Source of the DNA: Candidatus Kapaibacterium sp.
Lineage (GTDB): Bacteria > Bacteroidota > Ignavibacteria > Kapaibacteriales > UBA2268
DNA length: 64,000 bases
Assembly: GCA_963665665.1 (NCBI GenBank)
Contig: OY762428.1
Coordinates: 3,936,001-4,000,000, forward strand
Direction: 5' to 3'
The position numbers and the translations under genes are program-made. The notes below the pieces were generated by a model. It searched no databases and was not told the origin of the DNA. It saw only the letters and a program-made list of their open reading frames with translations. Within the stretch, counting starts at the first letter, position 1. Each line of letters begins with the position of its first letter. Positions 5,744-23,300 of this stretch are shown piece after piece.

Positions 5744-8700
5744 ATGGCAGACAACAACGCAAATATTAAACTTGATCCGGATCCGATTAAATCGGGTATC
5801 AGGGATATTATAAATGAAATTGACCTGTTCGCGGCACTGAGCGATTCGGATAAGGATAAACTGGCGGGGCATTTCGAATTTAAAAAACTTGGCCTCGGCG
5901 ACCCGATTTCGGAAGTTGGCAAGCCTTGTAATAATTTTATCTATGTTTACAAGGGCGCTATCAGGAAAAAGATCACTGCCGACGGCATCATCCGCAGCCT
6001 TGGGCGCGTTGAGGAAAAAGGCTTTACCGGGGAAATCTCACTTGTGGATGATACGCCCTGGAATTATTCTGTTTCAGCCGCCGACCCTGATACACATTTG
6101 CTTATTTTAGATTCCGTCAATCCTGAAGTAAGGTCTGTTGCTGTTTCTGCCAAAGAAAAAATTGCCGCATCCCTGCTTGAACACAAGATCAGGGATATAT
6201 TCAAATCAAAACTTATTGATGAAGACCTGGTTAAAGATATTGCCGACAGCGCATTTATCGAAAGGCACGACAAGGGAGAAATTATATTCAACCAGGGTGA
6301 AGAAAATAATTCACTATATATTATACTTCGCGGAATAGTTGATATCTACCGCGAGAACCTGGAAAATGACGGGCTTGTTGGCGTTGCCGGACGCGACGAC
6401 ATGATTGGCGAGTACGGCGTAGTTAGCGGCAAGCAGCAGGGCTACAGGGCCATAGCAAATGAAGAAACCGTTATGGTTGAAATCCCATACCAGCTTGTAT
6501 CGCAATTATTCAGCCATGATGACGGACTAAAAGAATTATTTGAAAGCAGAATTAAAAATTTTGAAGAAGAACTTGCCAAGATAACCGGTGGCGAGGCCGA
6601 TGACGAGAATAAAAAGATTTATCCAGAATTCAAAGATACGGGCGAAAAAAAGATCAGGCATTTCCCCTGGTTGCAGCAGCACGACGAAAGTGACTGCGGC
6701 CCCGCTTGTATTACCATGATCTCGAAATTTTACGGCAAGAAGCTGAGCATGGGGCAGGTTAGGGAAATGGCAAACGTATCGGTTGAAGGTGCCTCGATGG
6801 GGGCAGTTTGCCGGGCCTCGGAAAACCTTGGCTACAGGGCAAGGCCGTATAAACTCAGCTATCCCGGCCTTAAAAACCTGAAACTGCCGGCAATTGTCCA
6901 TTGGGAAGGCTATCACTGGACTGTATTGTTTAAAATAGATCCAAAAAATATATGGCTGGCAGACCCCGGTATCGGTATCAGAAAGCTGACACACGAACAA
7001 TTTAAAAAATCATGGACACGCTACGCGATAGAGTTAGAGCCTACACCGGCATTTAAAAGCCTGAAGCCGGCAAAAACTCCGGTATTCCGCTTCGTTAAAT
7101 ATCTGCTTCCGTATAAATTCTTCTTCTTTGAAATATTTATCGGGGCATTAGTTCTGAATGTACTTGGACTGGCATCTCCATTATTCATACAAAGTATTAT
7201 CGATAATGTTATCGTATATAAAAATGTTTCATTATTAAATATGATGCTGATGGGTATGGTGCTCGTCACCTTCTTCTCTACACTTACTTCAAGCATTCAG
7301 TCCCTGGTGATGATCTACGTAACCACACGCCTGGACTTGAAGCTGCTGGCGGATTTCTATAAGCACGTGCTAAGCCTGCCTATGAAATTCTTCTACTCGC
7401 GCAAAACGGGTGATATAATAACCCGCTTCGGCGAGAATAGCAAAGTAAGGGCTATTCTCTCGGGTTCGGCAATTTCCACCGTACTCAACGTGATAATGGT
7501 GGTTGTATATATATCAATGATGTTTGCCTATAGTGCCCCGCTTTCATTTGTTGTGCTTGCATTCCTGCCATTTTTCGTGGGGCTGACTCTCGTATTTTCA
7601 CCGATAATAAAAAGAATATCCAACGATATATTTATGTCCAACAGCGACCAAAGCTCGCTGATGATAGAATCCATACAGGGTATTGAAACCATCAAGGCAA
7701 ACTCGACAGAATGGAACGTAAGGACGAAATGGGAAGATTCATACGTTAACAACGTGAACCTTTCCGCCAAGATGCAGAAAACGCAGATGCTGGCAGGGAT
7801 TATAAGCCAGGTTGTAAACACAGCGTCGAGTATAACGCTGCTCTGGTATGGCGCCCACCTTGTAATGGAAGGCAGCATATCCGTAGGTGAGTTTATGGGA
7901 TTCAACGCAATAGTCGGTTCTGTGATGGGGCCAATAATGGGGCTGGTAGGGCTTTACGATCAGTTCCAGAATGTATCTACAAGTATGGAAAGGCTGAACG
8001 ACGTTCTTGAGATGGAACCCGAGGAAAAGCCACCGGCTGAAGAAGACAAACCAAAAGTATTTATCAAGAAGGCCAAAGGTGCCCTGAACTTCAAAGACGT
8101 GAATTTCCGCTACGGATCGGAGGATTCGCCGCTGGTCATCAATAATATGAACCTGGAAGTTCCGCCCGGCAAGGTAGTTGCATTTGTCGGCAAGTCCGGC
8201 TGTGGTAAGAGCACCCTGATGAAGATGCTGGCCGGCTTTAACATACCCACCTCCGGCGAACTGATGATCGACGGCATAGACCTTAAGAATATTGATATAA
8301 TGTCGCTGCGCCGGAATATTGGCTGGGTGCTGCAGGACAGTTTCCTGTTCAGTGGTTCGGTAATTGATAATATTGCCCTCGGCGATTTAAACCCGGATAT
8401 AGATAAGGTTAGAAAAGCTGCGGTGCTTGCCGCTGCTGATGAATTTATTAAGGATTTCCCGATGGGATACAAAACCATTGTCGGAGAAAAAGGCATGGCT
8501 GTTTCCGGAGGGCAGAGACAGAGATTATGCATAGCCCGCGCCCTTTACCGCGACCCCCAGATACTGCTAATGGACGAGGCCACATCCTCGCTTGACGCCG
8601 AATCGGAAAGAAGGATACAGGAGAACCTTGATAAAATTCTCGTGGGGCGCACGGCGGTAATTATTGCCCACCGCCTCAGTACCGTTCGCAACGCCGACAT

Positions 8701-8815
8701 GATATGCTACCTTGAAGGCGGCCGCGTAGCGGAAAAAGGCACCCACAGCGAACTGTTAAAAGCCCGCGGCCTATACTATGCCATGGCCTCCGAACAAATT
8801 GGCGGAGAAGATTGA
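5744..8815 (+). CDS. Peptidase C39-containing ABC exporter with N-terminal cyclic-nucleotide-binding domains
   Basis: Two cNMP-like domains (e.g. IIFNQGE...LYIILRG...IGE); C39 motifs QHDESDCGPAC, HW, ADP; TM domain; Walker A GKSGCGKS, signature VSGGQRQR, Walker B LLMDEATS. Confidence 0.93.
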   Translation: MADNNANIKLDPDPIKSGIRDIINEIDLFAALSDSDKDKLAGHFEFKKLGLGDPISEVGKPCNNFIYVYKGAIRKKITADGIIRSLGRVEEKGFTGEISLVDDTPWNYSVSAADPDTHLLILDSVNPEVRSVAVSAKEKIAASLLEHKIRDIFKSKLIDEDLVKDIADSAFIERHDKGEIIFNQGEENNSLYIILRGIVDIYRENLENDGLVGVAGRDDMIGEYGVVSGKQQGYRAIANEETVMVEIPYQLVSQLFSHDDGLKELFESRIKNFEEELAKITGGEADDENKKIYPEFKDTGEKKIRHFPWLQQHDESDCGPACITMISKFYGKKLSMGQVREMANVSVEGASMGAVCRASENLGYRARPYKLSYPGLKNLKLPAIVHWEGYHWTVLFKIDPKNIWLADPGIGIRKLTHEQFKKSWTRYAIELEPTPAFKSLKPAKTPVFRFVKYLLPYKFFFFEIFIGALVLNVLGLASPLFIQSIIDNVIVYKNVSLLNMMLMGMVLVTFFSTLTSSIQSLVMIYVTTRLDLKLLADFYKHVLSLPMKFFYSRKTGDIITRFGENSKVRAILSGSAISTVLNVIMVVVYISMMFAYSAPLSFVVLAFLPFFVGLTLVFSPIIKRISNDIFMSNSDQSSLMIESIQGIETIKANSTEWNVRTKWEDSYVNNVNLSAKMQKTQMLAGIISQVVNTASSITLLWYGAHLVMEGSISVGEFMGFNAIVGSVMGPIMGLVGLYDQFQNVSTSMERLNDVLEMEPEEKPPAEEDKPKVFIKKAKGALNFKDVNFRYGSEDSPLVINNMNLEVPPGKVVAFVGKSGCGKSTLMKMLAGFNIPTSGELMIDGIDLKNIDIMSLRRNIGWVLQDSFLFSGSVIDNIALGDLNPDIDKVRKAAVLAAADEFIKDFPMGYKTIVGEKGMAVSGGQRQRLCIARALYRDPQILLMDEATSSLDAESERRIQENLDKILVGRTAVIIAHRLSTVRNADMICYLEGGRVAEKGTHSELLKARGLYYAMASEQIGGED

Positions 8816-9592: not shown

Positions 9593-10513
9593 ATGGAAGA
9601 GACATTTAACGAACAATCGACTGCTGTAATGACAAAACCGCGAAAAACTGTTCTAGCGTTTTTGTTTTCGCTATTACTTCCCGGGTTCGGGCAAATTTAC
9701 AATGGACAGCTAATAAAAGGTATTGTGTTTTTTGTTTTAATTCATTCTGTTACTTATATATTTGCCCTAACACGTGCTGCAACATCATTATATGGCCTGA
9801 TTGCATGGTTTGTACTCGAAATAGCGCTTCTGATTTTTATAATCTATGACGGAGTAAAGAACGCCAGGCGACAAAAGCAGTATATCTTAAAACCATATAA
9901 CAGGTGGTACTATCATTTACTTTTTGCTATAGGGATGGTTAGTATTTTAATTTTTTTAGACATTTCTTTTTACAGTTTAGGTATAAAAAATTTTAAGATT
10001 ACCGGCTCCGGTAACAAACCGACTTTTCAAATTGGCGACCGTGTAGTTGCAGATGAGAAAGCATACAACAACAAGAAACCTGATTATGGCGATATTGTTG
10101 CCTTTTCAAGGCCTGACGGAAAGATATGGTTTTTTAGAATTGTAGGGCTTCCATTTGATATGATTGATTTAAATGATAATAATGTGTGTATTAACGGCAA
10201 GCCCGGTAAGGAAAAATTTATTTCGGAGACGAAAAGTGATGGCGTTCCGGTTCTTGAATTTGAAGAAGAGCTTCCAAACGGGCACAAATACCTGATCTAC
10301 AAAATGAAATATCCTTATGACAGTTCAAAAGCAAATATAAAACAAATCTTTGTGCCTCATGGAAGTTATTATGTAATGGGAGACAATCGTAACAGATCAT
10401 TAGATAGCAGGCATATTGGTTTCATAGATGAAGATAGTATCATAGGGCGCATTATTTATACTTATTGGGGAGACTCATTCGACAGAATAAATATTGATTT
10501 CAGAAACAAATAA
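9593..10513 (+). CDS. Signal peptidase I-like protein (S26) with extra N-terminal TM region
   Basis: SGNKPT (Ser box), GDIVAF, FFRIVGLPFD (Arg present; the usual catalytic Lys of KR is not obvious), YYVMGDNRNRSLDSR. Confidence 0.8.
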   Translation: MEETFNEQSTAVMTKPRKTVLAFLFSLLLPGFGQIYNGQLIKGIVFFVLIHSVTYIFALTRAATSLYGLIAWFVLEIALLIFIIYDGVKNARRQKQYILKPYNRWYYHLLFAIGMVSILIFLDISFYSLGIKNFKITGSGNKPTFQIGDRVVADEKAYNNKKPDYGDIVAFSRPDGKIWFFRIVGLPFDMIDLNDNNVCINGKPGKEKFISETKSDGVPVLEFEEELPNGHKYLIYKMKYPYDSSKANIKQIFVPHGSYYVMGDNRNRSLDSRHIGFIDEDSIIGRIIYTYWGDSFDRINIDFRNK

Positions 10514-10578
10514 TATTTGCTGTTAAACTTATAATCCGGCCATCAACCTGGTCGATATGAAATATGATTTAACTTTTA

Positions 10579-10646
10579 CGAACTGATAAAAGCCCGCGGC
10601 CTTTACTACGCCATGGCTTCCGAACAGCTGGGCGGCGAAGATTGAG
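10579..10646 (+). pseudogene. Orphan duplicate of the last 21 codons and stop of the C39 ABC exporter
   Basis: 60/68 nt identical to 8749..8816; encodes ELIKARGLYYAMASEQLGGED* versus ELLKARGLYYAMASEQIGGED*. Confidence 0.88.
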
Positions 10647-10654
10647 TGGTCGGG

Positions 10655-11998
10655 TTATTTCTCGTTCAATTCAAAATTATCCAGGAATTTCTGCAGGAAG
10701 TAATTATCTTCAAAATCATCATCGGGGCACAATATCTGCAAAATATATATTTTATTTCCATTTTCAACTGACAGGGTATACTCGTATAATTCATTTTCCC
10801 TTTCAATAATAACTTCCCGTGCCGGGTATTTATCATGAAATAAAATTTCATCTTCATCATCAATTTTATTATCAGTGCCGGCAATTTTTGTTTTTTGGAT
10901 AAACTGGTCAATCATCGGGTCAGGGTTTGTACCGTCGGGCATGCCGATGGAAGTTATATAATAAGCTTTATTATTATCGCCCTTTATAGGAACCGAAGCA
11001 TGATTATAGAAGAATACATCACCGCCTATGCTTTTCCGGTTTTCTGTTTCTTCAGGAGCTGTCGGAAACAAAGCTGAAAATCCCGCAGGAATAAAATCAA
11101 ATTTCTCCCATTTCACGAAATCCCTTCCTGTCAGTTCAAGTTCCTCATCGTATCCCACGGACCTGACGGCGTAGCCTTTCATTTTCAAAATATTCAGAAT
11201 TCCCTCATCCCCGGCAAGGTGTGCTGCCCCGACAACTGCAAAGCATGGCATTTTTTGGGATAGCTCGTCTATTCTCTCAGCCATTTTCCTGTTTCTTTTT
11301 CCAAGCAAAACTGATGACATCTCGCTGCCAGTTCTGGATTTTATAATCCTTTCATGCAGGCCGCCAATATCCTCATCAATGTAGTACTCCAGGTTTGCTT
11401 CGGATTCCTCAAGGTAATTGTCAGGGTTTTTAAAGAAATTATAATAGAATGACATTGGTATTTTATCAATAGTACCAATCTGATCGCCCAATTCTTCAAG
11501 GCCCTCAATTATCAGTCCCTTCTCCTCTGCTTTTAACTTCAGAAATCCATCTATAGTTTCCGGAAAATCGCTTTTCTGTATAACCTTGCGAATAAAATTA
11601 TAAACAGCAAAAAGCCTGAATTGGCCGAACAGGTCAGGCTCCTTTTTAAGATATTTTTTAATTGCCGCTGCCATTGGATTATAAATAGAATCGGGGAGAA
11701 TATTGATCAGCCTCTCGTTATTATCAAGATACATCGCACGCCCGGCAGCATCCGTTTCCTCGTCGCTTAGGCTAAGTTCCGGTGAAAACACTTTACATTT
11801 TCCAAGGCAAATCAGAACAGAATCGCCAAATTCAAAAGCCCTTTTATCCTTCACGTGCATACTGCCGAATACATAAGATTTGTGGTTTTGGTTTTCCTTC
11901 GAAATTTCCCAGAGCAGAGAGTTCTCAATTTCATCAGATAATAACAATCCTGAAGAAAAAATAATCAGTACGAATATTGTTTTGAAAAGTTGATTCAT
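10655..11998 (-). CDS. TraB/GumN (TIKI-like) family protein with C-terminal extension
   Basis: Signal peptide; SLLWEIS...SYVFGSMH, GLEELGDQ, RNRKM, FAVVGAAHLAG; likely start MNQLFK. Confidence 0.88.
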   Translation of the reverse strand: MNQLFKTIFVLIIFSSGLLLSDEIENSLLWEISKENQNHKSYVFGSMHVKDKRAFEFGDSVLICLGKCKVFSPELSLSDEETDAAGRAMYLDNNERLINILPDSIYNPMAAAIKKYLKKEPDLFGQFRLFAVYNFIRKVIQKSDFPETIDGFLKLKAEEKGLIIEGLEELGDQIGTIDKIPMSFYYNFFKNPDNYLEESEANLEYYIDEDIGGLHERIIKSRTGSEMSSVLLGKRNRKMAERIDELSQKMPCFAVVGAAHLAGDEGILNILKMKGYAVRSVGYDEELELTGRDFVKWEKFDFIPAGFSALFPTAPEETENRKSIGGDVFFYNHASVPIKGDNNKAYYITSIGMPDGTNPDPMIDQFIQKTKIAGTDNKIDDEDEILFHDKYPAREVIIERENELYEYTLSVENGNKIYILQILCPDDDFEDNYFLQKFLDNFELNEK

Positions 11999-12494
11999 GT
12001 AATTCAATTTTATAATTTCTAATTTCAAATTTCCTGATCAATAGAATTTAGTATTTATAAGCCCTGCCAATCAATTGAAATCAGGGTGCTTAGTGTACTT
12101 TAATTCAGAATTCTTTTTTTAAATATAATCCTGCAATATTTATATCTCAATTATTATCAAATTTTAGTATTAGTAACATACAAAATCATACAATATTTCA
12201 TACAAATTTAACAAAAGGAAAGAAAAAAGTATAATAATTTGGGTTAAATATTGGCCATCGTATTGTTTTAAAGGAATAATCTTTTTTAGCCTGTGCCCTG
12301 AAGGTGACAGAAACAGATTATTCAAAAATATTCAGCCTGTCCGGCAATGGATAGTCTTTGTGCAAGTTTATCTAAATTATAACTACCACAGCTTATCAGT
12401 ATTTCGTATCTTTGTACTTTCCGAAAATTTGAAAAACGTATGAATTGAAAATAGATAAAATGAAGCAGATCAAGATATTTTGAAAGGATTTTAA

Positions 12495-14417
12495 ATGGCA
12501 AAGTTTCAGTTTAAGCCGTTCGAGGAAATGACCGAAGACGATTACAGGGAGATCGGCTTTAAATCCGGGCTGGAAGTGCATCAGCAGCTTCTTACCGAGA
12601 AAAAACTATTCTGCCGCTGTCCTGCAGGCAGGTACTCCAAAGAATATAACGCGGAAATTCTCCGCCACATGAGGCCCACGCTTTCCGAGCTTGGCGAATA
12701 TGACGGCACAGCCCTCATGGAATTTAAAACAAAGAAAAATATTACTTACAGAATTAACCGCGAAACAGTATGTACCTACGAAATGGACGATACACCGCCT
12801 TTCGAAATAAATGAACAGGCTTTGGACATCGCTTTTGAAATTGGTATGCTGCTTGACGCAACGCTGGTGGACGAGCTTCATATTGCCAGGAAGCAGTATC
12901 TGGACGGATCAATTCCTACAGGGTTTCAGCGTACAGCTATTACATGCGTTAACGGTGAAGTTCCTTACAAAGACAGAATTATTCACATTATTCAGATGTC
13001 GATAGAAGAGGACTCATGCCGTGAAGCTTCTGATTTGGGCCATGAGAGAATTTATCTGACCGACCGGCTTGGAACTCCCCTGATTGAAACGGTTACTGCT
13101 CCTGAAATGAAAACACCTCAGGAAGTTGCCGAAGTAAACCAGATATTGCGTAAGCTGGTACGTTCAACAGGGCACGTTCGTACTGGTATTGGCGCCGGCC
13201 GCCAGGATGTTAACGTCAGCGTTACAGGTGGAACAAGAATCGAGATCAAGGGCGTTTCAAGAATTCCTTATATTCCACGCCTGACTTATAACGAAGCAAT
13301 GAGGCAGTGGAACCTGTTATTGCTCAGGGATGAACTTCATTCCCGCGGAATTACGGAAGAAACTTTCAAAGCTGATTATACTGACGTAACAAAAGCACTT
13401 AAGAAAACTCTTTACAAACCTGTTCACCAGGCTATTGCAGATGGTAAAACAGTTAACTGCGTAGCGCTGAAAGGATATAAAGGACTTCTTAACTGGCAAA
13501 CACAGACAGATACTTATTTCTCGAAGGAAATATCCGACAGGGTAAGGGTGATTGCATGTATTTCTGAAATACCAAACATTCTTCATTCGGATACCCCGAT
13601 GGACTCCATTTCCACAGCCGAATGGCAAAAGCTCAGGAAACAGATGGAAGCCGATGAAAATGATACTCTCGTTTTGGTTTGGGGATGCCCGGGCGATGCA
13701 GAGACAGGCGCTAAAGAAATTATTATCCGCGCTAAGGAAGCAACAATTGGTATTCCTTCGGAAACCAGGCAGGCTCTGAGGGACGGAACAAATGGCTTTG
13801 AACGTATACTGCCGGGCCCGGAAAGAATGTATCCGGATACCGACCTTCCGCCAAAACGCATAACAGAAGACAGAAAAGCAAGACTCAGGGAAGGACTCCC
13901 GAAATATTTCTGGGACAACATGAAATGGTATTACGAACTCGGTATTCCTGAAGATACAATCGAGCCTCTCTCCTATTCAAAATATGCTCCTCTGTTCGAA
14001 AAACTTGTGAAAGAGCACGAAGTCAGCCCGGTTCTTGCTGCCGTGGTATTAGTTCAAAATATCAAGCGACTGAAAAAACAGGGACTGGATATATTGAAAC
14101 TGACCGACGACATCCTTGAAAATATTTTAATCCTGAATAAAGACGGCCTGCTGCCGGCGGATGCCATTCTTTTTGCAATGCGGGATGCTGTTAAAACAGG
14201 AAAATTTGACAAGGAAATGATCCCCGAAGCAATAAAAGAAGATCAGCTTGAAAAAGAATTTGGCGCAGCTGACAGGAAATTCGGCGACATGGAGATAATC
14301 AATCCGCAAAGCAAACACAAAATCATGGCAGGAATAATGATGGAAGGGCTTCGCTACAGGATTGAAGCAGCTAAAGTTAATGAATTTTTGAAAAATAAAC
14401 TGAACGGGGAGGGCTGA
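12495..14417 (+). CDS. gatE: Glutamyl-tRNA(Gln) amidotransferase subunit E (archaeal type)
   Basis: GLEVHQQL..KKLFCRCP, LRHMRPTLSELGEYD, RKQYLDGSIPTGFQRT, LTDRLGTPLIE, RQDVNVS, RIEIKGV, AspRS-like insertion with ILHSD, IPSETR, LPGPERMYPDTDLPP. Confidence 0.92.
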   Translation: MAKFQFKPFEEMTEDDYREIGFKSGLEVHQQLLTEKKLFCRCPAGRYSKEYNAEILRHMRPTLSELGEYDGTALMEFKTKKNITYRINRETVCTYEMDDTPPFEINEQALDIAFEIGMLLDATLVDELHIARKQYLDGSIPTGFQRTAITCVNGEVPYKDRIIHIIQMSIEEDSCREASDLGHERIYLTDRLGTPLIETVTAPEMKTPQEVAEVNQILRKLVRSTGHVRTGIGAGRQDVNVSVTGGTRIEIKGVSRIPYIPRLTYNEAMRQWNLLLLRDELHSRGITEETFKADYTDVTKALKKTLYKPVHQAIADGKTVNCVALKGYKGLLNWQTQTDTYFSKEISDRVRVIACISEIPNILHSDTPMDSISTAEWQKLRKQMEADENDTLVLVWGCPGDAETGAKEIIIRAKEATIGIPSETRQALRDGTNGFERILPGPERMYPDTDLPPKRITEDRKARLREGLPKYFWDNMKWYYELGIPEDTIEPLSYSKYAPLFEKLVKEHEVSPVLAAVVLVQNIKRLKKQGLDILKLTDDILENILILNKDGLLPADAILFAMRDAVKTGKFDKEMIPEAIKEDQLEKEFGAADRKFGDMEIINPQSKHKIMAGIMMEGLRYRIEAAKVNEFLKNKLNGEG

Positions 14418-14418
14418 T

Positions 14419-15810
14419 ATGTCTGTAAGTGAAGATTATAAAGGCTACTGGGGCAAAGTGCTCGAAACCCTGCAAAAATTTGAAGCAAAAGTATGGAGCG
14501 ACGTTGAAATATTTACTAATGCGGATGACCACTATATCGGCCTTATTCTGCCACGTTCCGAAACTGCTGACGACCTGCACGTTGTTTTGAAGCTTCGTAC
14601 CGGATATAATGTTGGCATAGCAGTTGAAAAAATTACTGATATTAAAATAAACGGCCGTAAGATTGCCAATTATAAAATTCCGGAACAGGAATTCCCGACA
14701 GATCCTGTGAAACCGAGAGTAAAACTTTTCGGTACCGGCGGAACTATTGCCAGCCGCCTGGACTATCGTACAGGCGCGGTTATACCGGCATTCTCGCCCG
14801 GCGAACTTTATGGTTCGGTGCCGGAACTTGCAGATTATTGCAACCTTGAAACAGAAAAATTATACGGCGTTTTCAGCGAGAATATGGGCCCGGACCAGTG
14901 GAAAGGTACTGCCGAAGCCATTGCAGCCGAAATTGAAAAAGGCGTGCAGGGAATTGTTATCGGGCATGGGACAGATACAATGCACCATACCGCTGCAATT
15001 CTTTCATTCATGATCCAGAACTCGCCGGTTCCTATCGTGATGGTAGGTTCGCAGCGTTCCAGCGACAGGCCGTCGTCCGATGCCGCGCTAAACCTGATCC
15101 ACTCGATAAAAACAGCCTCCGAGTCCGATATAGCTGAAGTAATGGTTTGCATGTTCGGCCCGACTTCAGACACTTACGGCCTGCTGCACCGCGGTACAAG
15201 AGTTAGGAAAATGCACTCCAGCTACCGTTCTACTTTCCGTACAATCGGCGATATTCCTATCGCAATGGTTGACAAGGAAAACATCACACCCATAAGGAAT
15301 GACTACAAACGCAGAAGGCACGACAAAGACTTTATTCTGAAGCCTTATTTCGAGGAAAAAGTAGGGATTCTCTATTATTATCCCAACATGCAGCCTGATA
15401 TGGTGGACATGATGATTGATAATGGCTATAAAGGTATCGTATTTGCCGGAACAGGACTCGGCCATGTGAACAAACCGCTTTACGCAGCGCTGAAACGCGC
15501 TCAGGACAAGGGTGTTGCTGTTTACATGACTGTTCAGACCCTCTGGGGTTACGTGCAGATGTACGTTTACGAAACAGGGCGCGAAATGATGGAACTCGGC
15601 GTTGTGCCTACAGCCAACATGCTTCCCGAAGTTGCTTACATGAAACTTGCATGGGCGCTCGGCCAAACCGACGACCTTGAGAAAGTAAAAGATATAATGC
15701 TCACTCCGGTTGCAGGAGAAATAACCGAACGCGAACCGAGCAACGGTTACCTGATATACCAGGGCGGCATTCCCGAAGTGGAAGAATTTATTTCCAAATA
15801 CAGGAAATAA
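14419..15810 (+). CDS. gatD: Glutamyl-tRNA(Gln) amidotransferase subunit D (asparaginase-like glutaminase)
   Basis: GatD-type N-terminal domain (ILPR...HVVLKLRTGYNVGI); GTGGTIASRLDYRTGAV, HGTDTM, GSQRSSDRPSSDA, RKMHSSYRSTF; starts 1 nt after the gatE stop. Confidence 0.93.
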   Translation: MSVSEDYKGYWGKVLETLQKFEAKVWSDVEIFTNADDHYIGLILPRSETADDLHVVLKLRTGYNVGIAVEKITDIKINGRKIANYKIPEQEFPTDPVKPRVKLFGTGGTIASRLDYRTGAVIPAFSPGELYGSVPELADYCNLETEKLYGVFSENMGPDQWKGTAEAIAAEIEKGVQGIVIGHGTDTMHHTAAILSFMIQNSPVPIVMVGSQRSSDRPSSDAALNLIHSIKTASESDIAEVMVCMFGPTSDTYGLLHRGTRVRKMHSSYRSTFRTIGDIPIAMVDKENITPIRNDYKRRRHDKDFILKPYFEEKVGILYYYPNMQPDMVDMMIDNGYKGIVFAGTGLGHVNKPLYAALKRAQDKGVAVYMTVQTLWGYVQMYVYETGREMMELGVVPTANMLPEVAYMKLAWALGQTDDLEKVKDIMLTPVAGEITEREPSNGYLIYQGGIPEVEEFISKYRK

Positions 15811-15831
15811 CAAAAACCGCCATATATTTAT

Positions 15832-15869
15832 ACTCATCCGATGATTTCTTTCGTCGGGTGAGTTTTTTT
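15832..15869 (+). terminator. Rho-independent terminator of gatED
   Basis: ACTCATCCGATGA...TCGTCGGGTGAGT stem followed by a T run. Confidence 0.8.
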
Positions 15870-16311: not shown

Positions 16312-17571
16312 ATGAAGAAACTAATTTTACTGGCAGCAATTTTATCATTTTTATTTTCTGCCGGGGCAAGGGCACAGGCCGATTCCCTCGTGATGTGGAC
16401 TTATGGAAATACAAGGTTTTCAACACAGCCGCGAGTACATCCCAACGGCAATGTTTTCATCGGAGATAATCAGGCAAATATAATGGAAATTGACGGTTTA
16501 ACAGGAGAACTTATAAGAAAAATAGCTTTGCCTGCCGGAACAACAAGTTTGGAATTGTCTTTGGATGGTTCGAAAATGGCGGCGGCAGGATATATAATTG
16601 ATGTAGAAAGTGGAGAAGTAATTAAAGCACATCCTGAAGCTTACAAGATAAAATTTCTCCATCCTGACAATTCTAAAATTATTTATGCACCTTTTAATCA
16701 GGCAGAATACAACTTCTTTGTATGGGATATTGAAACCGGGGAATCAGAAAGTTTTGATATCGGAAAAAAATTAATAACTGCGCTGGAAGTATCAAATAAC
16801 GGCAAATTCTTTGCAATTGCAACATTGGAAACCGGATACGATGACGAAGAACACACCCACTTCTACCTTTTCGATGCGCAAACAATGCAGTTTATTAAGG
16901 AACTGGAAGACTATCCTGACAATGGCAGAAGAATTGAGTATATTCAGTTTTCTGAAAATGCTAAGTATGTATGTTATGGGCAAAACAGGTTAGGTTCAAT
17001 AAAAGGTTCATTTTTCTTAACGGAAGCACCGTATTCCAAGTGGATGTTAATAACAGAAACAACCCCGCCTAAAGGTTTTTGGGGTTTAGGTCTGATTGAT
17101 GATAATTATGTTTTTGCAACATCAGATAATGGGCTTGATTTTTATTCAATTATATGGGATATTGATAATGAAAAAGAAATATATTTTTCATCAGAATATG
17201 GTTCTTCAAATCCGCTATACAACTATGCAGCTAAAAATATAATTGTACACGATAATGGAAATCGTACTATTGTCGCCCTTGATTTCGAAAAAATCCTGAG
17301 TACCGTAGGCGTTAAAGATGAGTTGGATACAAACGCGTTCAGGGCTGAATACTCGGGCGGCATACTGACAATAAACGGACTTGAAAGCCAAAGCGTAGAA
17401 ATCAACCTTACAATTAATAATATTCAGGGGGAAGTGGTTTTTTCTCAAAATATCGCTGCTGTTCATGGCTCGCAAATATCGTTGTCCGTATCATTGCCCT
17501 CGGGGGTTTATATTGCCCGAATCAGGACGGGAGAAAATAATTATTCCTCAAAATTTTTAGTGGTGAACTAA
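16312..17571 (+). CDS. T9SS-secreted WD40-like beta-propeller protein, copy 1
   Basis: Signal peptide ending ARA-Q; WD-like blades; T9SS CTD (INNIQGEVV...LPSGVYIARI...KFLVVN). Confidence 0.85.
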   Translation: MKKLILLAAILSFLFSAGARAQADSLVMWTYGNTRFSTQPRVHPNGNVFIGDNQANIMEIDGLTGELIRKIALPAGTTSLELSLDGSKMAAAGYIIDVESGEVIKAHPEAYKIKFLHPDNSKIIYAPFNQAEYNFFVWDIETGESESFDIGKKLITALEVSNNGKFFAIATLETGYDDEEHTHFYLFDAQTMQFIKELEDYPDNGRRIEYIQFSENAKYVCYGQNRLGSIKGSFFLTEAPYSKWMLITETTPPKGFWGLGLIDDNYVFATSDNGLDFYSIIWDIDNEKEIYFSSEYGSSNPLYNYAAKNIIVHDNGNRTIVALDFEKILSTVGVKDELDTNAFRAEYSGGILTINGLESQSVEINLTINNIQGEVVFSQNIAAVHGSQISLSVSLPSGVYIARIRTGENNYSSKFLVVN

Positions 17572-17739
17572 CTCCGCCCCCGCTTTCAGCGCTGACAGGT
17601 TCAACATTGAAAGCGGCGGCTGGAAAAATGAAGAAAAAGCAGGGAATATTGAGACCAAATTGAATTTGATATGTTACTAACTATATATAAATAATACTAC
17701 CCGATGGTAGTAATGTAAAAACAATTATAGGGCTTTACC

Positions 17740-19008
17740 ATGAAAAAACTAATTTTACTGGCAGCGTTTTTATCATTCTTATTTTCTGCCGGGGCAAGGG
17801 CGCAGGCCGATTCCCTCGTGATGTGGACTAATAATGAGGTTCAATTCCACTCCATGCCTGCAATTCATCCCAACGGGAACGTGTTGATACGAAGCCATTA
17901 CGATATCCTGGAAATTAACGGTTTAACCGGCGAAATTATGAGGAATATCAATGTTCCTTTTACAGGTATTGTTAGCGATTGGATTGATATTTCTAAGGAT
18001 GGCACACGTTTCGTAGCTTGCCGGAAGATCGTTAATTTTGAGACAGGGGAAATTATCGGAGAACTGCCGGAGGAAACTGCAATTGTAAAATTTCTCCATC
18101 CTGACAATTCTAAAATTATTTATGCACCTTTTAATCAGGCAGAATACAACTTCTTTGTATGGGATATTGAAACCGGGGAATCAGAAGGTTTTGATATCGG
18201 AAAAAAATTAATAACTGCGCTGGAAGTATCAAATAACGGCAAATTCTTTGCAATTGCAACATTGGAAACCGGATACGATGAAGAAGAACACACCCACTTC
18301 TACCTTTTCGATGCGCAAACAATGCAGTTTATTAAGGAGCTTGAAGACTACCCTGCCAATGGCAGGACAATTGAGTATATTCAGTTTTCTGAAAATGCTA
18401 AATATGTATGTTATGGGCAAAACAGGTTAGGTTCAATAAAAGGTTCATTTTTCTTAACGGAAGCACCGTATTCCAAGTGGATGTTAATAACAGAAACAAC
18501 CCCGCCTAAAGGTTTTTGGGGTTTAGGTCTGATTGATGATAATTATGTTTTTGCAACATCAGATAATGGGCTTGATTTTTATTCAATTATATGGGATATT
18601 GATAATGAAAAAGAAATATATTTTTCATCAGAATATGGCTCTTCAAATCCGCTATACAACTATGCAGCTAAAAATATAATTGTACACGATAATGGAAATC
18701 GTACTATTGTCGCCCTTGATTTCGAAAAAATCCTGAGTACCGTAGGCGTTAAAGATGAGTTGGATACAAACGCGTTCAGGGCTGAATACTCGGGCGGCAT
18801 ACTGACAATAAACGGACTTGAAAGCCAAAGCGTAGAAATCAACCTTACAATTAATAATATTCAGGGGGAAGTGGTTTTTTCTCAAAATATCGCTGCTGTT
18901 CATGGCTCGCAAATATCGTTGCCCGTATCATTGCCCTCGGGGGTTTATATTGCCCGAATCAGGACGGGAGAAAATAATTATTCCTCAAAATTTTTAGTGG
19001 TGAACTAA
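17740..19008 (+). CDS. T9SS-secreted WD40-like beta-propeller protein, copy 2
   Basis: As copy 1 but with the alternative N-terminal block (NNEVQFHSMPAIHP...). Confidence 0.85.
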   Translation: MKKLILLAAFLSFLFSAGARAQADSLVMWTNNEVQFHSMPAIHPNGNVLIRSHYDILEINGLTGEIMRNINVPFTGIVSDWIDISKDGTRFVACRKIVNFETGEIIGELPEETAIVKFLHPDNSKIIYAPFNQAEYNFFVWDIETGESEGFDIGKKLITALEVSNNGKFFAIATLETGYDEEEHTHFYLFDAQTMQFIKELEDYPANGRTIEYIQFSENAKYVCYGQNRLGSIKGSFFLTEAPYSKWMLITETTPPKGFWGLGLIDDNYVFATSDNGLDFYSIIWDIDNEKEIYFSSEYGSSNPLYNYAAKNIIVHDNGNRTIVALDFEKILSTVGVKDELDTNAFRAEYSGGILTINGLESQSVEINLTINNIQGEVVFSQNIAAVHGSQISLPVSLPSGVYIARIRTGENNYSSKFLVVN

Positions 19009-19175
19009 CTCCGCCCCCGCTTTCAGCGCTGACAGGTTCAACATTGAAAGCGGCGGCTGGAAAAATGAAGAAAAAAAGCCGGGAATAATGAGACCAAATT
19101 GAATTTGATATGTTACTATGAATACAAAAACTACCCCTTATGGTAGTAATGTAAAAACAATTATGGGGCTTTACC

Positions 19176-20444
19176 ATGAAAAAACTAATTTTACTGGCAG
19201 CAATTTTATCATTTTTATTTTCCACCGGGGCAAGGGCGCAGGCCGATTCCCTCGTGATGTGGACTAATAATGAGGTATCATTCCACTCCATGCCTGCAAT
19301 TCATCCCAACGGGAACGTGTTGATACGAAGCCATTACGATATCCTGGAAATTAACGGTTTAACCGGCGAAATTATAAGAAATATCAATGTTCCTTTTACA
19401 GGCTATATTAGCGATTTGATTGATATTTCTACGGACGGCACACGTTTCGTAGCTTGCCGGAAAATCGTTGATTTCGAGACAGGGGAAATTATCGGAGAAC
19501 TGCCGGAGGAAACTGCATACGTTAAATTTTTTCATCCGAATAATAATTTGTTGATCTACAAAATAAATACTCTGGAAAATAACCGCTGGTTTATCATGAA
19601 TATTGATCAGGGTAATTCAATTATAGTTGAAAATTTGTCGAATTATACAACAGCCTTTGAAGTATCACTTGACGGCAGGTTTTTAGCACTTGCAACATTA
19701 GAAAACTACGACACAGAAGATGAATCTACCTACTTCTACCTTTTCGATGCGCAAACAATGCAGTTTATCAAGGAGCTTGAAGACTACCCTGCCAATGGCA
19801 GAAGAATTGAGTATATTCAGTTTTCTGAAAATGCTAAATATGTAAGTTATGGACTTAATCATTCTGGCTCACCAAAAGCTGCCATTTTTTTAACGGAAAC
19901 GCCGTATTCAGGGTGGATATTAAAAACTGAAACAACTCCGCCCAAAGGATTTTATGGATTAGGTATGATTGGTGATAAATATGTTTTTGCAACATCAGCT
20001 ATTGGAAATGATTTTCATTCAATTATATGGGATATTGATAATGAAAAAGAAATATATTTTTCATCAGAATATGGTTCTTCAAATCCGCTATACAACTATG
20101 CAGCTAAAAATATAATTGTACACGATAATGGAAATTATACATTAGTCGCCCTTGATTTCGAAAAAATCCTTAGTACCGTGGGCGTTAAAGAAGAAGAGGA
20201 TGCAAACGCGTTCAGGGCTGAATACTCGGGCGGCATATTGACAATAAACGGGCTTGAAAGCCAAAGCGTAGAAATCAACCTTACAATTAATAATATTCAG
20301 GGGGAATTAGTATTTTCTCAAAATATTGCTGCTGTTCATGGCTCGCAAATATCGTTGCCCGTATCATTGCCCTCGGGGGTTTATATTGCCCGGATCAGGA
20401 CGAGAGAAAATAATTATTCCTCTAAATTTTTGGTGGTTAATTAA
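19176..20444 (+). CDS. T9SS-secreted WD40-like beta-propeller protein, copy 3
   Basis: Alternative alleles at all variable blocks. Confidence 0.85.
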   Translation: MKKLILLAAILSFLFSTGARAQADSLVMWTNNEVSFHSMPAIHPNGNVLIRSHYDILEINGLTGEIIRNINVPFTGYISDLIDISTDGTRFVACRKIVDFETGEIIGELPEETAYVKFFHPNNNLLIYKINTLENNRWFIMNIDQGNSIIVENLSNYTTAFEVSLDGRFLALATLENYDTEDESTYFYLFDAQTMQFIKELEDYPANGRRIEYIQFSENAKYVSYGLNHSGSPKAAIFLTETPYSGWILKTETTPPKGFYGLGMIGDKYVFATSAIGNDFHSIIWDIDNEKEIYFSSEYGSSNPLYNYAAKNIIVHDNGNYTLVALDFEKILSTVGVKEEEDANAFRAEYSGGILTINGLESQSVEINLTINNIQGELVFSQNIAAVHGSQISLPVSLPSGVYIARIRTRENNYSSKFLVVN

Positions 20445-20612
20445 CCCCGCCCCCGCTTTCAGCGCTGACAGGTTCAACATTGAAAGCGGCGGCTGGAAAA
20501 ATGAAGAAAAAGCAGGGAATATTGAGACCAAATTGAATTTGATATGTTACTAACTATATATAAATAATACTACCCGATGGTAGTAATGTAAAAACAATTA
20601 TAGGGCTTTACC

Positions 20613-21872
20613 ATGAAGAAACTAATTTTACTGGCAGCAATTTTATCATTTTTATTTTCTGCCGGGGCAAGGGCACAGGCCGATTCCCTCGTGATGTGGA
20701 CTTATGGAAATACAAGGTTTTCAACACAGCCGCGAGTACATCCCAACGGCAATGTTTTCATCGGAGATAATCAGGCAAATATAATGGAAATTGACGGTTT
20801 AACAGGAGAACTTATAAGAAAAATAGCTTTGCCTGCCGGAACAACAAGTTTGGAATTGTCTTTGGATGGTTCGAAAATGGCGGCGGCAGGATATATAATT
20901 GATGTAGAAAGTGGAGAAGTAATTAAAGCACATCCTGAAGCTTACAAGATAAAATTTCTCCATCCTGACAATTCTAAAATTATTTATGCACCTTTTAATC
21001 AGGCAGAATACAACTTCTTTGTATGGGATATTGAAACCGGGGAATCAGAAAGTTTTGATATCGGAAAAAAATTAATAACTGCGCTGGAAGTATCAAATAA
21101 CGGCAAATTCTTTGCAATTGCAACATTGGAAACCGGATACGATGACGAAGAACACACCCACTTCTACCTTTTCGATGCGCAAACAATGCAGTTTATTAAG
21201 GAACTGGAAGACTATCCTGACAATGGCAGAAGAATTGAGTATATTCAGTTTTCTGAAAATGCTAAGTATGTATGTTATGGGCAAAACAGGTTAGGTTCAA
21301 TAAAAGGTTCATTTTTCTTAACGGAAGCACCGTATTCCAAGTGGATGTTAATAACAGAAACAACCCCGCCTAAAGGTTTTTGGGGTTTAGGTCTGATTGA
21401 TGATAATTATGTTTTTGCAACATCAGATAATGGGCTTGATTTTTATTCAATTATATGGGATATTGATAATGAAAAAGAAATATATTTTTCATCAGAATAT
21501 GGTTCTTCAAATCCGCTATACAACTATGCAGCTAAAAATATAATTGTACACGATAATGGAAATCGTACTATTGTCGCCCTTGATTTCGAAAAAATCCTGA
21601 GTACCGTAGGCGTTAAAGATGAGTTGGATACAAACGCGTTCAGGGCTGAATACTCGGGCGGCATACTGACAATAAACGGACTTGAAAGCCAAAGCGTAGA
21701 AATCAACCTTACAATTAATAATATTCAGGGGGAAGTGGTTTTTTCTCAAAATATCGCTGCTGTTCATGGTTCGCAAATATCGTTGTCCGTATCATTGCCC
21801 TCGGGGGTTTATATTGCCCGAATCAGGACGGGAGAAAATAATTATTCCTCAAAATTTTTAGTGGTGAACTAA
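20613..21872 (+). CDS. T9SS-secreted WD40-like beta-propeller protein, copy 4
   Basis: Protein identical to copy 1. Confidence 0.85.
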   Translation: MKKLILLAAILSFLFSAGARAQADSLVMWTYGNTRFSTQPRVHPNGNVFIGDNQANIMEIDGLTGELIRKIALPAGTTSLELSLDGSKMAAAGYIIDVESGEVIKAHPEAYKIKFLHPDNSKIIYAPFNQAEYNFFVWDIETGESESFDIGKKLITALEVSNNGKFFAIATLETGYDDEEHTHFYLFDAQTMQFIKELEDYPDNGRRIEYIQFSENAKYVCYGQNRLGSIKGSFFLTEAPYSKWMLITETTPPKGFWGLGLIDDNYVFATSDNGLDFYSIIWDIDNEKEIYFSSEYGSSNPLYNYAAKNIIVHDNGNRTIVALDFEKILSTVGVKDELDTNAFRAEYSGGILTINGLESQSVEINLTINNIQGEVVFSQNIAAVHGSQISLSVSLPSGVYIARIRTGENNYSSKFLVVN

Positions 21873-22040
21873 CTCCGCCCCCGCTTTCAGCGCTGACAGG
21901 TTCAACATTGAAAGCGGCGGCTGGAAAAATGAAGAAAAAGCAGGGAATATTGAGACCAAATTGAATTTGATATGTTACTAACTATATATAAATAATACTA
22001 CCCGATGGTAGTAATGTAAAAACAATTATGGGGCTTTACC

Positions 22041-23300
22041 ATGAAAAAACTAATTTTATTCACAGCAATTTTATCATTTTTATTATCTGCCGGGGCAAGG
22101 GCACAGGCCGATTCCCTCGTGATGTGGACTTATGGAAATACAAGGTTTTCAACACAGCCGCGAGTACATCCCAACGGCAATGTTTTCATCGGAGATAATC
22201 AGGCAAATATAATGGAAATTGACGGTTTAACAGGAGAACTTATAAGAAAAATAGCTTTGCCTGCCGGAACAACAAGTTTGGAATTGTCTTTGGATGGTTC
22301 GAAAATGGCGGCGGCAGGATATATAATTGATGTAGAAAGTGGAGAAGTAATTAAAGCACATCCTGCAGCTTACAAGATAAAATTTCTCCATCCTGACAAT
22401 TCTAAAATTATTTATGCACCTTTTAATCAGGCAGAATACAACTTCTTTGTATGGGATATTGAAACCGGGGAATCAGAAAGTTTTGATATCGGAAAAAAAT
22501 TAATAACTGCGCTGGAAGTATCAAATAACGGCAAATTCTTTGCAATTGCAACATTGGAAACCGGATACGATGACGAAGAACACACCCACTTCTACCTTTT
22601 CGATGCGCAAACAATGCAGTTTATTAAGGAGCTTGAAGACTACCCTGCCAATGGCAGAAGAATTGAGTATATTCAGTTTTCTGAAAATGCTAAGTATGTA
22701 AGTTATGGACTTAATCATTCTGGCTCACCAAAAGCTGCCATTTTTTTAACGGAAACGCCGTATTCAGGGTGGATATTAAAAACTGAAACAACTCCGCCCA
22801 AAGGATTTTATGGATTAGGTATGATTGGTGATAAATATGTTTTTGCAACATCAGCTATTGGAAATGATTTTCATTCAATTATATGGGATATTGATAATGA
22901 AAAAGAAATATATTTTTCATCAGAATATGGTTCTTCAAATCCGCTATACAACTATGCAGCTAAAAATATAATTGTACACGATAATGGAAATTATACATTA
23001 GTCGCCCTTGATTTCGAAAAAATCCTTAGTACCGTGGGCGTTAAAGAAGAAGAGGATGCAAACGCGTTCAGGGCTGAATACTCTGGCGGGATACTGACAA
23101 TAAACGGGCTTGAAAGCCAAAGCGTAGAAATCAACCTTACAATTAATAATATTCAGGGGGAAGTGGTTTTTTCTCAAAATATTGCTGCTGTTCAGGGTTC
23201 GCAAATATCGTCGCCCGTATCATTGCCCTCGGGGGTTTATATTGCCCGGATCAGGACGGGAGAAAATAATTATTCCTCAAAATTTATCGTGGTTAACTAA
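22041..23300 (+). CDS. T9SS-secreted WD40-like beta-propeller protein, copy 5
   Basis: N-terminal half like copy 1, C-terminal half like copy 3. Confidence 0.85.
   Translation: MKKLILFTAILSFLLSAGARAQADSLVMWTYGNTRFSTQPRVHPNGNVFIGDNQANIMEIDGLTGELIRKIALPAGTTSLELSLDGSKMAAAGYIIDVESGEVIKAHPAAYKIKFLHPDNSKIIYAPFNQAEYNFFVWDIETGESESFDIGKKLITALEVSNNGKFFAIATLETGYDDEEHTHFYLFDAQTMQFIKELEDYPANGRRIEYIQFSENAKYVSYGLNHSGSPKAAIFLTETPYSGWILKTETTPPKGFYGLGMIGDKYVFATSAIGNDFHSIIWDIDNEKEIYFSSEYGSSNPLYNYAAKNIIVHDNGNYTLVALDFEKILSTVGVKEEEDANAFRAEYSGGILTINGLESQSVEINLTINNIQGEVVFSQNIAAVQGSQISSPVSLPSGVYIARIRTGENNYSSKFIVVN

Follow-up and report, generated by a model that had tools for sequence, protein, structure and literature searches.

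The stretch of DNA analysed here (the window) comprises 64,000 nucleotides, i.e. bases 3,936,001-4,000,000 of the one-contig, 5,458,198-bp genome of Candidatus Kapaibacterium sp. (99.5% complete, 0.8% contamination), and it encodes GatDE, a glutamyl-tRNAGln amidotransferase that the reviews consulted still describe as restricted to archaea. The gene for subunit E, gatE (12495-14417, 640 aa), and the gene for subunit D, gatD (14419-15810, 463 aa), both lie on the + strand, and a gap of 1 nt separates the two open reading frames (ORFs). The unit is closed by an intrinsic-terminator-like hairpin (15832-15863, + strand), whose 13-bp stem contains 6 GC pairs and encloses a loop of 6 nt and which is accompanied by a T-run, so that the arrangement described in the initial annotation, which had been made from the letters of the sequence, is found as stated. 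Upstream of gatE a putative σ70-like promoter (12208-12235, + strand; TTAACA, 16-nt spacer, TATAAT) matches the consensus at 11 of 12 positions, which in this AT-rich spacer is weak evidence.

Identity and conservation of GatE and GatD

Both proteins were assigned by hidden Markov models (HMMs) at the equivalog level, by Pfam domains and by matches to PDB entries. GatE reaches 523 bits with NF003107 (cut-off 456), aligning to model positions 2-625 of 630, and 438.8 bits with TIGR00134 (cut-off 319.6), and its best PDB matches, 1zq1_C (327.5 bits) and 2d6f_C (303.5 bits), are both GatE. An assignment of the 640-aa protein to GatB was rejected, as the best GatB model scores 130.5 bits against a cut-off of 338 and covers residues 102-278 only; moreover, a separate GatB is encoded elsewhere in the genome. 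In GatE the catalytic GatB_N domain is interrupted by an AspRS-like GAD domain (PF02938, residues 312-398, 24.7 bits versus 23.4), and the protein thus consists of a kinase/transamidase cradle, the AspRS-like insertion, and helical and tail domains. The YqeY-like tail, PF02637, which is carried by many close relatives, was not reported for the window GatE, although the alignment with NF003107 extends almost to the end of the model.

GatD scores 509.6 bits with both TIGR02153 (cut-off 324) and NF003217 (cut-off 310) as well as 401 bits with PDB entry 1zq1_A, and contains the GatD_N domain (residues 29-76, 47.5 bits versus 25.7) in addition to the domains Asparaginase and Asparaginase_C. As expected for a GatD, it also passes the type I asparaginase subfamily model (388 versus 260.5). 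A stand-alone AnsA or AnsB was nevertheless rejected, since the respective equivalogs remain below their cut-offs (NF006998, 139.5 bits versus 376; NF008304, 142.6 versus 506) and GatD_N is present. Thus, the preference for GatE and GatD over GatB and AnsA, the AspRS-like insertion in GatE and the N-terminal domain in GatD, all of them claimed in the initial annotation, were recovered by the models.

The window GatD contains the motifs GTGGTIAS, HGTDTM and RKMHSS at residues 105, 183 and 263, which we take to be the asparaginase-type catalytic Thr, Thr-Asp and Lys motifs, and the patterns GTGGTI[AS]S, HGTDTM and R[KR]MH[ST]S are present in 73, 62 and 72, respectively, of 73 full-length related GatD. 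In 13 archaeal-type GatE sequences 74 columns do not vary; of these columns, 61 are each retained by at least 95% of 31 sequences from the Ignavibacteria/Kapabacteria class, to which the host belongs, and four (query positions 219, 255, 361 and 367) are changed class-wide. Broad conservation of the first-pair loop, R.TGKV[KR]RG.G, extends to all GatE groups, with two basic positions relaxed; a re-tooling of this loop was considered as a specificity signal and rejected for this reason. In eight non-overlapping close pairs for each gene the ratio of nonsynonymous to synonymous substitution rates (dN/dS) ranges from 0.028 to 0.069 for gatE and from 0.019 to 0.052 for gatD, i.e. both genes are under strong purifying selection. 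Hence, this is a real, intact and selected GatDE in bacteria, whereas the protein family itself is already known.

Distribution of bacterial GatDE

GatE was called present at E ≤ 1e-80 with the GatE model, a threshold that four archaeal control genomes pass. In a sample of the host order 58 of 201 genomes have GatE, all of them in the host family, where it is found in 57 of 76 genomes besides the host, whereas ten other families of the order have none (0/124). The class sample yielded GatE in 63 of 301 species genomes, distributed over 11 of 28 families, and in a phylum sample all 16 positive genomes (of 401) fall into the class, with 0/302 outside it. Nine single-contig genomes besides that of the host encode GatE. 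The initial annotation was therefore right about the presence of an archaeal-type GatDE in a bacterial chromosome, but the pair is no peculiarity of this one chromosome, as it occurs class-wide and in further lineages of bacteria.

Of 80 related loci, 76 carry gatD after gatE, and the identities amount to 75-86% for GatD and 61-68% for GatE. Three of the loci (L056, L080, L097) have a gap of 478-3155 nt between the two genes instead of an overlap or abutment, which suggests insertions. Conserved neighbours were considered as a hint to function and rejected, as no flanking gene family is common to more than 12 of the 80 loci, antisense shadow ORFs inside gatE and gatD excepted.

The nearest GatE relatives (61-70% identity) are labelled Ignavibacteria, Candidatus Kapaibacterium, Melioribacteraceae or Bacteroidota, some labels of metagenome-assembled genomes being clearly unreliable, and GatE is the name that public annotation pipelines already give to these bacterial proteins. 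Judged by titles and the beginnings of abstracts, none of the papers listed in our literature search, which left subscription journals largely and supplements entirely outside its scope, deals with a bacterial GatDE. As far as these searches reach, bacterial GatDE is thus on record in databases but was not found discussed in print.

Charging and amidation genes in the host and its class

The host encodes single copies of GlnRS (756.5 bits), a bacterial-type GluRS (562.6 bits), AspRS and AsnRS (498.8 bits) as well as two full-scoring copies of AsnB. Its GatB is divergent (442.8 bits, compared with about 575-585 for the canonical GatB of family members; C1:1626063-1627472), and a GatA-like amidase lies just below the cut-off (471.9 versus 481.1 bits; C1:45632-46951). 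GatC gave no match in the closed host genome with either TIGR00135 or PF02686, the latter of which finds GatC in five of five family members with canonical GatB. The host GatCAB may thus be incomplete, decaying or of separate origin, and the divergent GatB, the sub-threshold GatA and the undetected GatC suggest that GatDE is probably the one complete amidotransferase of the host. As GlnRS is present, it is not the only route to Gln-tRNAGln.

We scored the states of GlnRS, GatB, GatE and AsnRS in the 301 class genomes. Genomes with GlnRS carry both GatB and GatE in 33 cases, GatB without GatE in 83, GatE without GatB in 26 and neither in 13; the corresponding numbers for genomes lacking GlnRS are 2, 132, 2 and 10. 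Accordingly, GlnRS is present in 59 of 63 genomes with GatE versus 96 of 238 without it, and two of the four genomes that have GatE and lack GlnRS are less than 80% complete. Among GlnRS-containing genomes GatB is absent from 26 of 59 with GatE versus 13 of 96 without GatE, and 142 of 155 keep at least one amidotransferase, which fits a continuing need for such an enzyme. Nearly every genome of families f1 and f26 has either GlnRS and GatDE without GatB or GatB with neither GlnRS nor GatDE. GatCAB is the ancestral route in the class, with 132 of the 146 genomes lacking GlnRS being positive for GatB and negative for GatE. In two f26 genomes with GatDE as sole amidotransferase gltX adjoins glnS (G316:C32:21203-24372, G276:C2:546459-549658).

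AsnRS is found in 292 of the 301 genomes, and AsnB in 35 of 40 tested, namely in that of the host, 23 of 26 others with GatDE only and 11 of 13 without any amidotransferase. With AsnRS near-universal and AsnB present, GatDE is not needed for asparagine, and we rejected it as an asparagine route on these counts, which do not include asnA (TIGR00669, not searched).

The first base pair of tRNAGln

Archaeal GatDE is reported to read the A1-U72 pair of its tRNA and, per reviews, the D-loop (PMC2330236, PMC9499178), whereas bacterial GatCAB is described as positively recognising U1-A72 via a 3-10 turn that is absent from GatE (PMC2330236, PMC9499178, PMC2811023). Both tRNAGln genes of the host (UUG and CUG) have U1-A72 and G73, and so does its tRNAAsn. 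With a BLAST probe tRNAGln(UUG) was recovered from 59 genomes of the host family, host counted, of which 17 have A1-U72 (5' AGGGAUG, 3' CAUCCCU, G73) and 42 U1-A72. The A1-U72 form is present in 16 of 45 genomes with GatE versus 1 of 14 without, and this single genome belongs to a genus in which GatE is found in seven of eight sampled genomes. Thus, all 17 fall into seven GatE-bearing genera, whereas none of the six scorable genera lacking GatE has A1-U72. In the three A1-U72 genomes that are part of the class sample (G012, G013, G018) GatB is absent. Four genomes from other families that have GatDE only keep U1-A72, and in families f25, f26 and f29 the BLAST probe recovered no tRNAGln. An archaeal-like tRNAGln, one of the consequences envisaged in the initial annotation, is therefore not what the host has, but it does occur in 17 of its relatives. 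Among the indirect evidence, the switch to A1-U72 speaks most strongly for a real handling of tRNAGln by bacterial GatDE, although it may rest on few events.

Position 73, where G is an identity element for GlnRS, varies as well. Five family genomes without GatE have A73 in tRNAGln (G006, G066, G042, G003 and G182; L257, L258, L263, L268 and L289), the first three of them lacking GlnRS, and G73 is found in all 45 scored family genomes with GatE. Thus, position 73 of tRNAGln also seems to track its charging system.

Proposed role of GatDE beside GlnRS

We propose, with a probability of roughly 60%, that GatDE is a functional Glu-tRNAGln amidotransferase that works beside GlnRS, in that it provides a parallel route or converts Glu-tRNAGln made by a mischarging GluRS. 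If the mechanism of the archaeal enzyme applies, GatD, an asparaginase-type glutaminase, would free ammonia from Gln or Asn, and GatE would activate the side-chain carboxyl group of Glu-tRNAGln with ATP and amidate it to Gln-tRNAGln. In a cell with GlnRS this would amount to a second or reserve pathway by which Glu-tRNAGln is cleared or put to use, and GatDE would have replaced GatCAB in many genomes. The proposal builds on the observed family membership, conservation, distribution, co-occurrence patterns and tRNAGln first-pair switch; the enzymatic activity, the substrate and the mischarging of tRNAGln by the host GluRS are what we infer.

Archaeal GatDE, as known from Methanothermobacter thermautotrophicus (2D6F) and Pyrococcus abyssi (1ZQ1), has the same two-subunit domain set as the window pair, and the two agree in equivalog-level HMM scores, GatD motifs, first-pair loop and the 61 retained GatE columns. 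Nevertheless, the window GatE shares only 31-38% identity with canonical archaeal representatives, four archaeal-invariant columns are changed class-wide, and the host is a bacterium with GlnRS, AsnRS, a bacterial-type GluRS and a U1-A72 tRNAGln. Bacterial GatCAB catalyses the same overall class of reaction, and GatB and GatE have cradle and tail domains in common, but GatB lacks the GAD insertion and its partners are the amidase GatA and GatC rather than an asparaginase-type GatD. In Thermus and Deinococcus GatCAB is the only known route to asparagine; here, in contrast, the enzyme is GatDE and AsnB is available in the host and most other genomes with GatDE only. Common to these systems is that direct and indirect routes appear redundant within one genome, as Thermus, Deinococcus and also Bdellovibrio are reported to keep GatCAB despite GlnRS and AsnRS (PMC4206432).

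Several observations weigh against the proposed role. The tRNAGln of the host has U1-A72, unlike the A1-U72 reported for archaeal GatDE, and U1-A72 is also kept in 29 of the 45 family genomes with GatE. The presence of GlnRS in the host and in nearly all other genomes with GatE implies that the canonical GatDE reaction is not required for viability, and 13 of the genomes with GlnRS have no amidotransferase at all. The co-occurrence counts come from related genomes, i.e. they describe a pattern and may reflect few evolutionary events. In the tail domain, which is reported to contact the D-loop of the tRNA, the window GatE has Tyr and Ala at residues 621 and 625 (14355-14369), two positions that are always Gly in the 13 archaeal-type sequences and Gly in 90% and 84%, respectively, of the class sequences. 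The published tail motif GXXAXGX found no certain placement. Finally, the host GluRS has Arg at the position of Arg358 in the Thermus thermophilus enzyme, a marker of discriminating enzymes. This marker was, however, rejected, as Arg is found in 11 of 11 family genomes tested, five of which lack GlnRS and must mischarge tRNAGln, so that it is uninformative in this lineage; in family f26 the position is R, R and Y in three genomes with GlnRS and Y and Y in two without.

Some of these points would also be explained if GatDE had been repurposed, i.e. if fold and chemistry were kept for another substrate, e.g. Asp-tRNAAsn or a different acyl-tRNA, or for a task other than routine translation, for instance tRNA charging that depends on nitrogen status or a glutaminase or kinase activity independent of tRNA. 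GlnRS, which coexists with GatE in 59 of 63 genomes, already supplies Gln-tRNAGln, and since tRNAGln and tRNAAsn of the host are both U1-A72/G73, the archaeal first-pair rule that separates them (PMC2330236) would not apply. The four class-wide changes in GatE, the two relaxed basic positions of the first-pair loop and the loss of the two tail glycines in the window GatE point in the same direction, as does the location of glnA, which adjoins gatDE in archaeal loci and lies near the pair in one bacterial locus. We nevertheless regard a repurposed enzyme as unlikely. With AsnRS in 292 of 301 genomes and AsnB in the host and 23 of 26 other genomes with GatDE only, tRNA-dependent asparagine synthesis is unneeded; the A1-U72 switch is specific to the tRNAGln of GatDE-bearing genera; and most archaeal-invariant GatE columns, the catalytic motifs of GatD and the broadly conserved first-pair loop have been retained.

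Origin of bacterial GatDE

An exhaustive search of 1.84 billion cluster representatives with GatE yielded two tiers, the query tier with 40-59% and the canonical tier with 31-38% identity. Trees were calculated for GatE only, with FastTree or IQ-TREE ('quick', LG+G4) and support from the Shimodaira-Hasegawa-like approximate likelihood ratio test (SH-aLRT), leaving out 41 of 150 representatives outside 590-720 aa and the GatE of genome G464, which has an internal stop; class rows were thinned for speed, P0177 and P0188 were omitted from later trees, and metagenome loci shorter than 7 kb were dropped. We took the canonical tier as archaeal, as the archaeal GatE of the PDB score likewise, the four archaeal controls pass, and clusters of the Atlas give leads to the same effect.

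Among full-length representatives the query tier forms a clade (support 100) that is separate from the canonical tier. All 31 GatE from 11 families of the class lie in one subclade, with supports of 100 and 99 in two trees, as would be expected if the genes had been acquired once, long ago, and then passed on vertically and partly lost. The wider clade of 74 rows, 33 of them without domain assignment and with no resolved order at its base, also contains Zixibacteria-labelled proteins and metagenome lineages with bacterial flanks, namely L194 (a protein with a tail for the type IX secretion system, T9SS, and a Wzc-type kinase), L215 (TonB-dependent receptor), L207 (DnaX) and L190 (LonA); L192 is probably bacterial, judged by weak, sub-cut-off BamB-like matches. 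One tight cluster of eight rows with short branches is labelled Thermoplasmata (P0300, P0338, P0309; L150-L191) and belongs to the same clade as the bacterial copies (support 100). Its contigs are truly archaeal, as they encode PCNA (280.8 bits, which exceeds the cut-off), PriL (341 bits) and an archaeal-type AsnA, and its proteins share about 45-53% (GatE) and about 68-73% (GatD) identity with those of the window. Unlike in the window, where gatE precedes gatD in the same direction, the two genes are divergent in this cluster, with glnA alongside.

With six bacterial GatB as outgroup, the clade, here with 59 rows and a support of 99, groups with P0162 (98 for the pair), next come two small groups of the canonical tier and then a core of 70 rows, the two rootmost nodes being supported by 20 and 40. 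Atlas clusters near P0162 are archaeal only, whereas those near the query are mostly bacterial (Bacteroidota), and both are to be taken as leads only. An ancient transfer from archaea to bacteria, from a lineage related to the Thermoplasmata-like group, is thus likely. The genes would have entered the ancestor of the Ignavibacteria/Kapabacteria class by an ancient inter-domain transfer from a GatDE lineage that today also spans the Thermoplasmata-like archaea, Zixibacteria and other bacteria, and would since have been inherited mainly vertically, with losses.

The alternative is that the bacterial clade is itself old, being a vertical relic from the era of life's last universal common ancestor (LUCA) or a very early acquisition by the FCB (Fibrobacteres-Chlorobi-Bacteroidetes) group, with the Thermoplasmata-like archaea as recipients. 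The depth of the 74-row clade, with end branches of 0.5-1.0 and an unordered base, would agree with this, as would the fact that its identified members are bacterial except for the one tight archaeal cluster; in addition, the GatB root is placed with little support, and a review relays a proposal of GatDE in LUCA (PMC9499178). This origin is, however, improbable, as P0162, whose nearest Atlas clusters are archaeal, joins the clade at 98, more archaeal-type rows branch between P0162 and the archaeal core, GatE is confined to one class within the host phylum, and the divergent gene order of the archaeal cluster recurs in the probably bacterial L192, while the co-directional order of the class is derived. 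Concerning the transfer from archaea claimed in the initial annotation, we therefore agree on an old, ameliorated acquisition, as the class copies are monophyletic, host-like in composition and under purifying selection (dN/dS 0.019-0.069), while its direction is likely but tempered by the weakly placed root.

The loci of the clade offered a few further observations. Unlike in the class and the archaeal cluster, the examined flank of up to 10 kb on each side of gatE contains no gatD in L207, L212, L215 and L221, which represent lineages of the Zixibacteria type and one high-GC lineage of bacteria. Within the archaeal cluster glnA adjoins gatD and gatE in L158:7136-13334 and L189:6959-11926, and a weaker GlnA-like gene lies near the pair in the bacterial L194:9983-16698. 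A MocR-like pyridoxal phosphate-dependent aminotransferase is encoded beside the pair both in the archaeal L158 and in the bacterial L190:8300-11974.

Implications for tRNA-dependent amidation in bacteria

A large and conserved bacterial GatDE clade overturns the distribution that made the enzyme an archaeal hallmark, and the interest of the finding lies in this contradiction of the textbook distribution, in the orderly relation of GatDE with GlnRS and GatCAB and in the archaeal-style switch of tRNAGln in relatives of the host. It represents a natural experiment in which a foreign module of aminoacyl-tRNA synthesis has been fitted into bacterial translation with GlnRS, a bacterial-type GluRS and a U1-A72 tRNAGln, and the switch to A1-U72 makes the co-evolution of amidotransferase and tRNA identity directly testable. 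Moreover, it bears on the annotation-based inference of Gln- and Asn-tRNA pathways in genomes of the FCB group.

More tentatively, and with somewhat less than even confidence, we speculate that a whole bacterial radiation, including the Ignavibacteria/Kapabacteria class, Zixibacteria and others, uses GatDE in translation, that GatCAB has been displaced in many of these genomes, and that tRNAGln identity is being remodelled, A1-U72 having arisen only where GatDE is present. If so, nature would here provide an example of a tRNA and an enzyme evolving together after a module for aminoacyl-tRNA synthesis had been swapped across domains, GatDE would no longer be an archaeal signature, and the deep bacterial clade would bear on the question whether GatDE predates the split of archaea and bacteria.

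Integrity of the locus and neighbouring genes

The pair is flanked by bacterial genes, i.e. those for proteins with T9SS C-terminal sorting domains, DnaX, signal peptidase I and a C39-ABC (ATP-binding cassette) exporter, in line with the T9SS cargo and dnaX named as neighbours in the initial annotation. The GC content at third codon positions is 0.442 for gatE and 0.495 for gatD, which places the two genes at the 87th and 96th percentile, respectively, among 2,081 long ORFs; these values are high for the genome yet comparable to those of glnS (0.574) and asnS (0.529). In codon-usage distance gatE does not stand out (28th percentile), whereas gatD ranks moderately high (89th). The codon usage of gatDE thus falls inside the host range, as had been judged by eye.

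A contig of 12,655 nt from public runs matches 10000-15863 with zero differences, and from a second study one contig bridges the upstream junction (11654-13023) and another the gatE/gatD junction (14133-15028). The short-read contigs of all four runs end at 15863, and none was seen bridging into the downstream repeat region; this stop coincides with the terminator hairpin and the five tandem paralogous genes that follow. Apart from this stop just past gatD we found no support for archaeal contamination or a chimeric assembly join, which can practically be dismissed given the single, nearly complete contig of 5.46 Mb, the independent contigs across the pair and its upstream flank, the match of the stop to hairpin and paralogs, the same gene pair in 57 of 76 other family genomes and the host-like codon usage. 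The operon thus belongs to a bacterial chromosome, as first claimed.

The downstream region (16312-23300, + strand) consists of five tandem ORFs of 419-422 aa with a spacing of about 1430 nt, and the first two, which are those scanned, have T9SS C-terminal sorting domains. Over this region the short-read contigs fragment and the word depth rises several-fold, as expected of near-identical paralogs. Upstream, 5744-8815 (+ strand) encodes an ABC exporter of 1023 aa that combines a peptidase C39 domain with cyclic-nucleotide-binding domains at its N-terminus, a composition that would suit a bacteriocin-type exporter with a possible sensor for cyclic nucleotide monophosphates.

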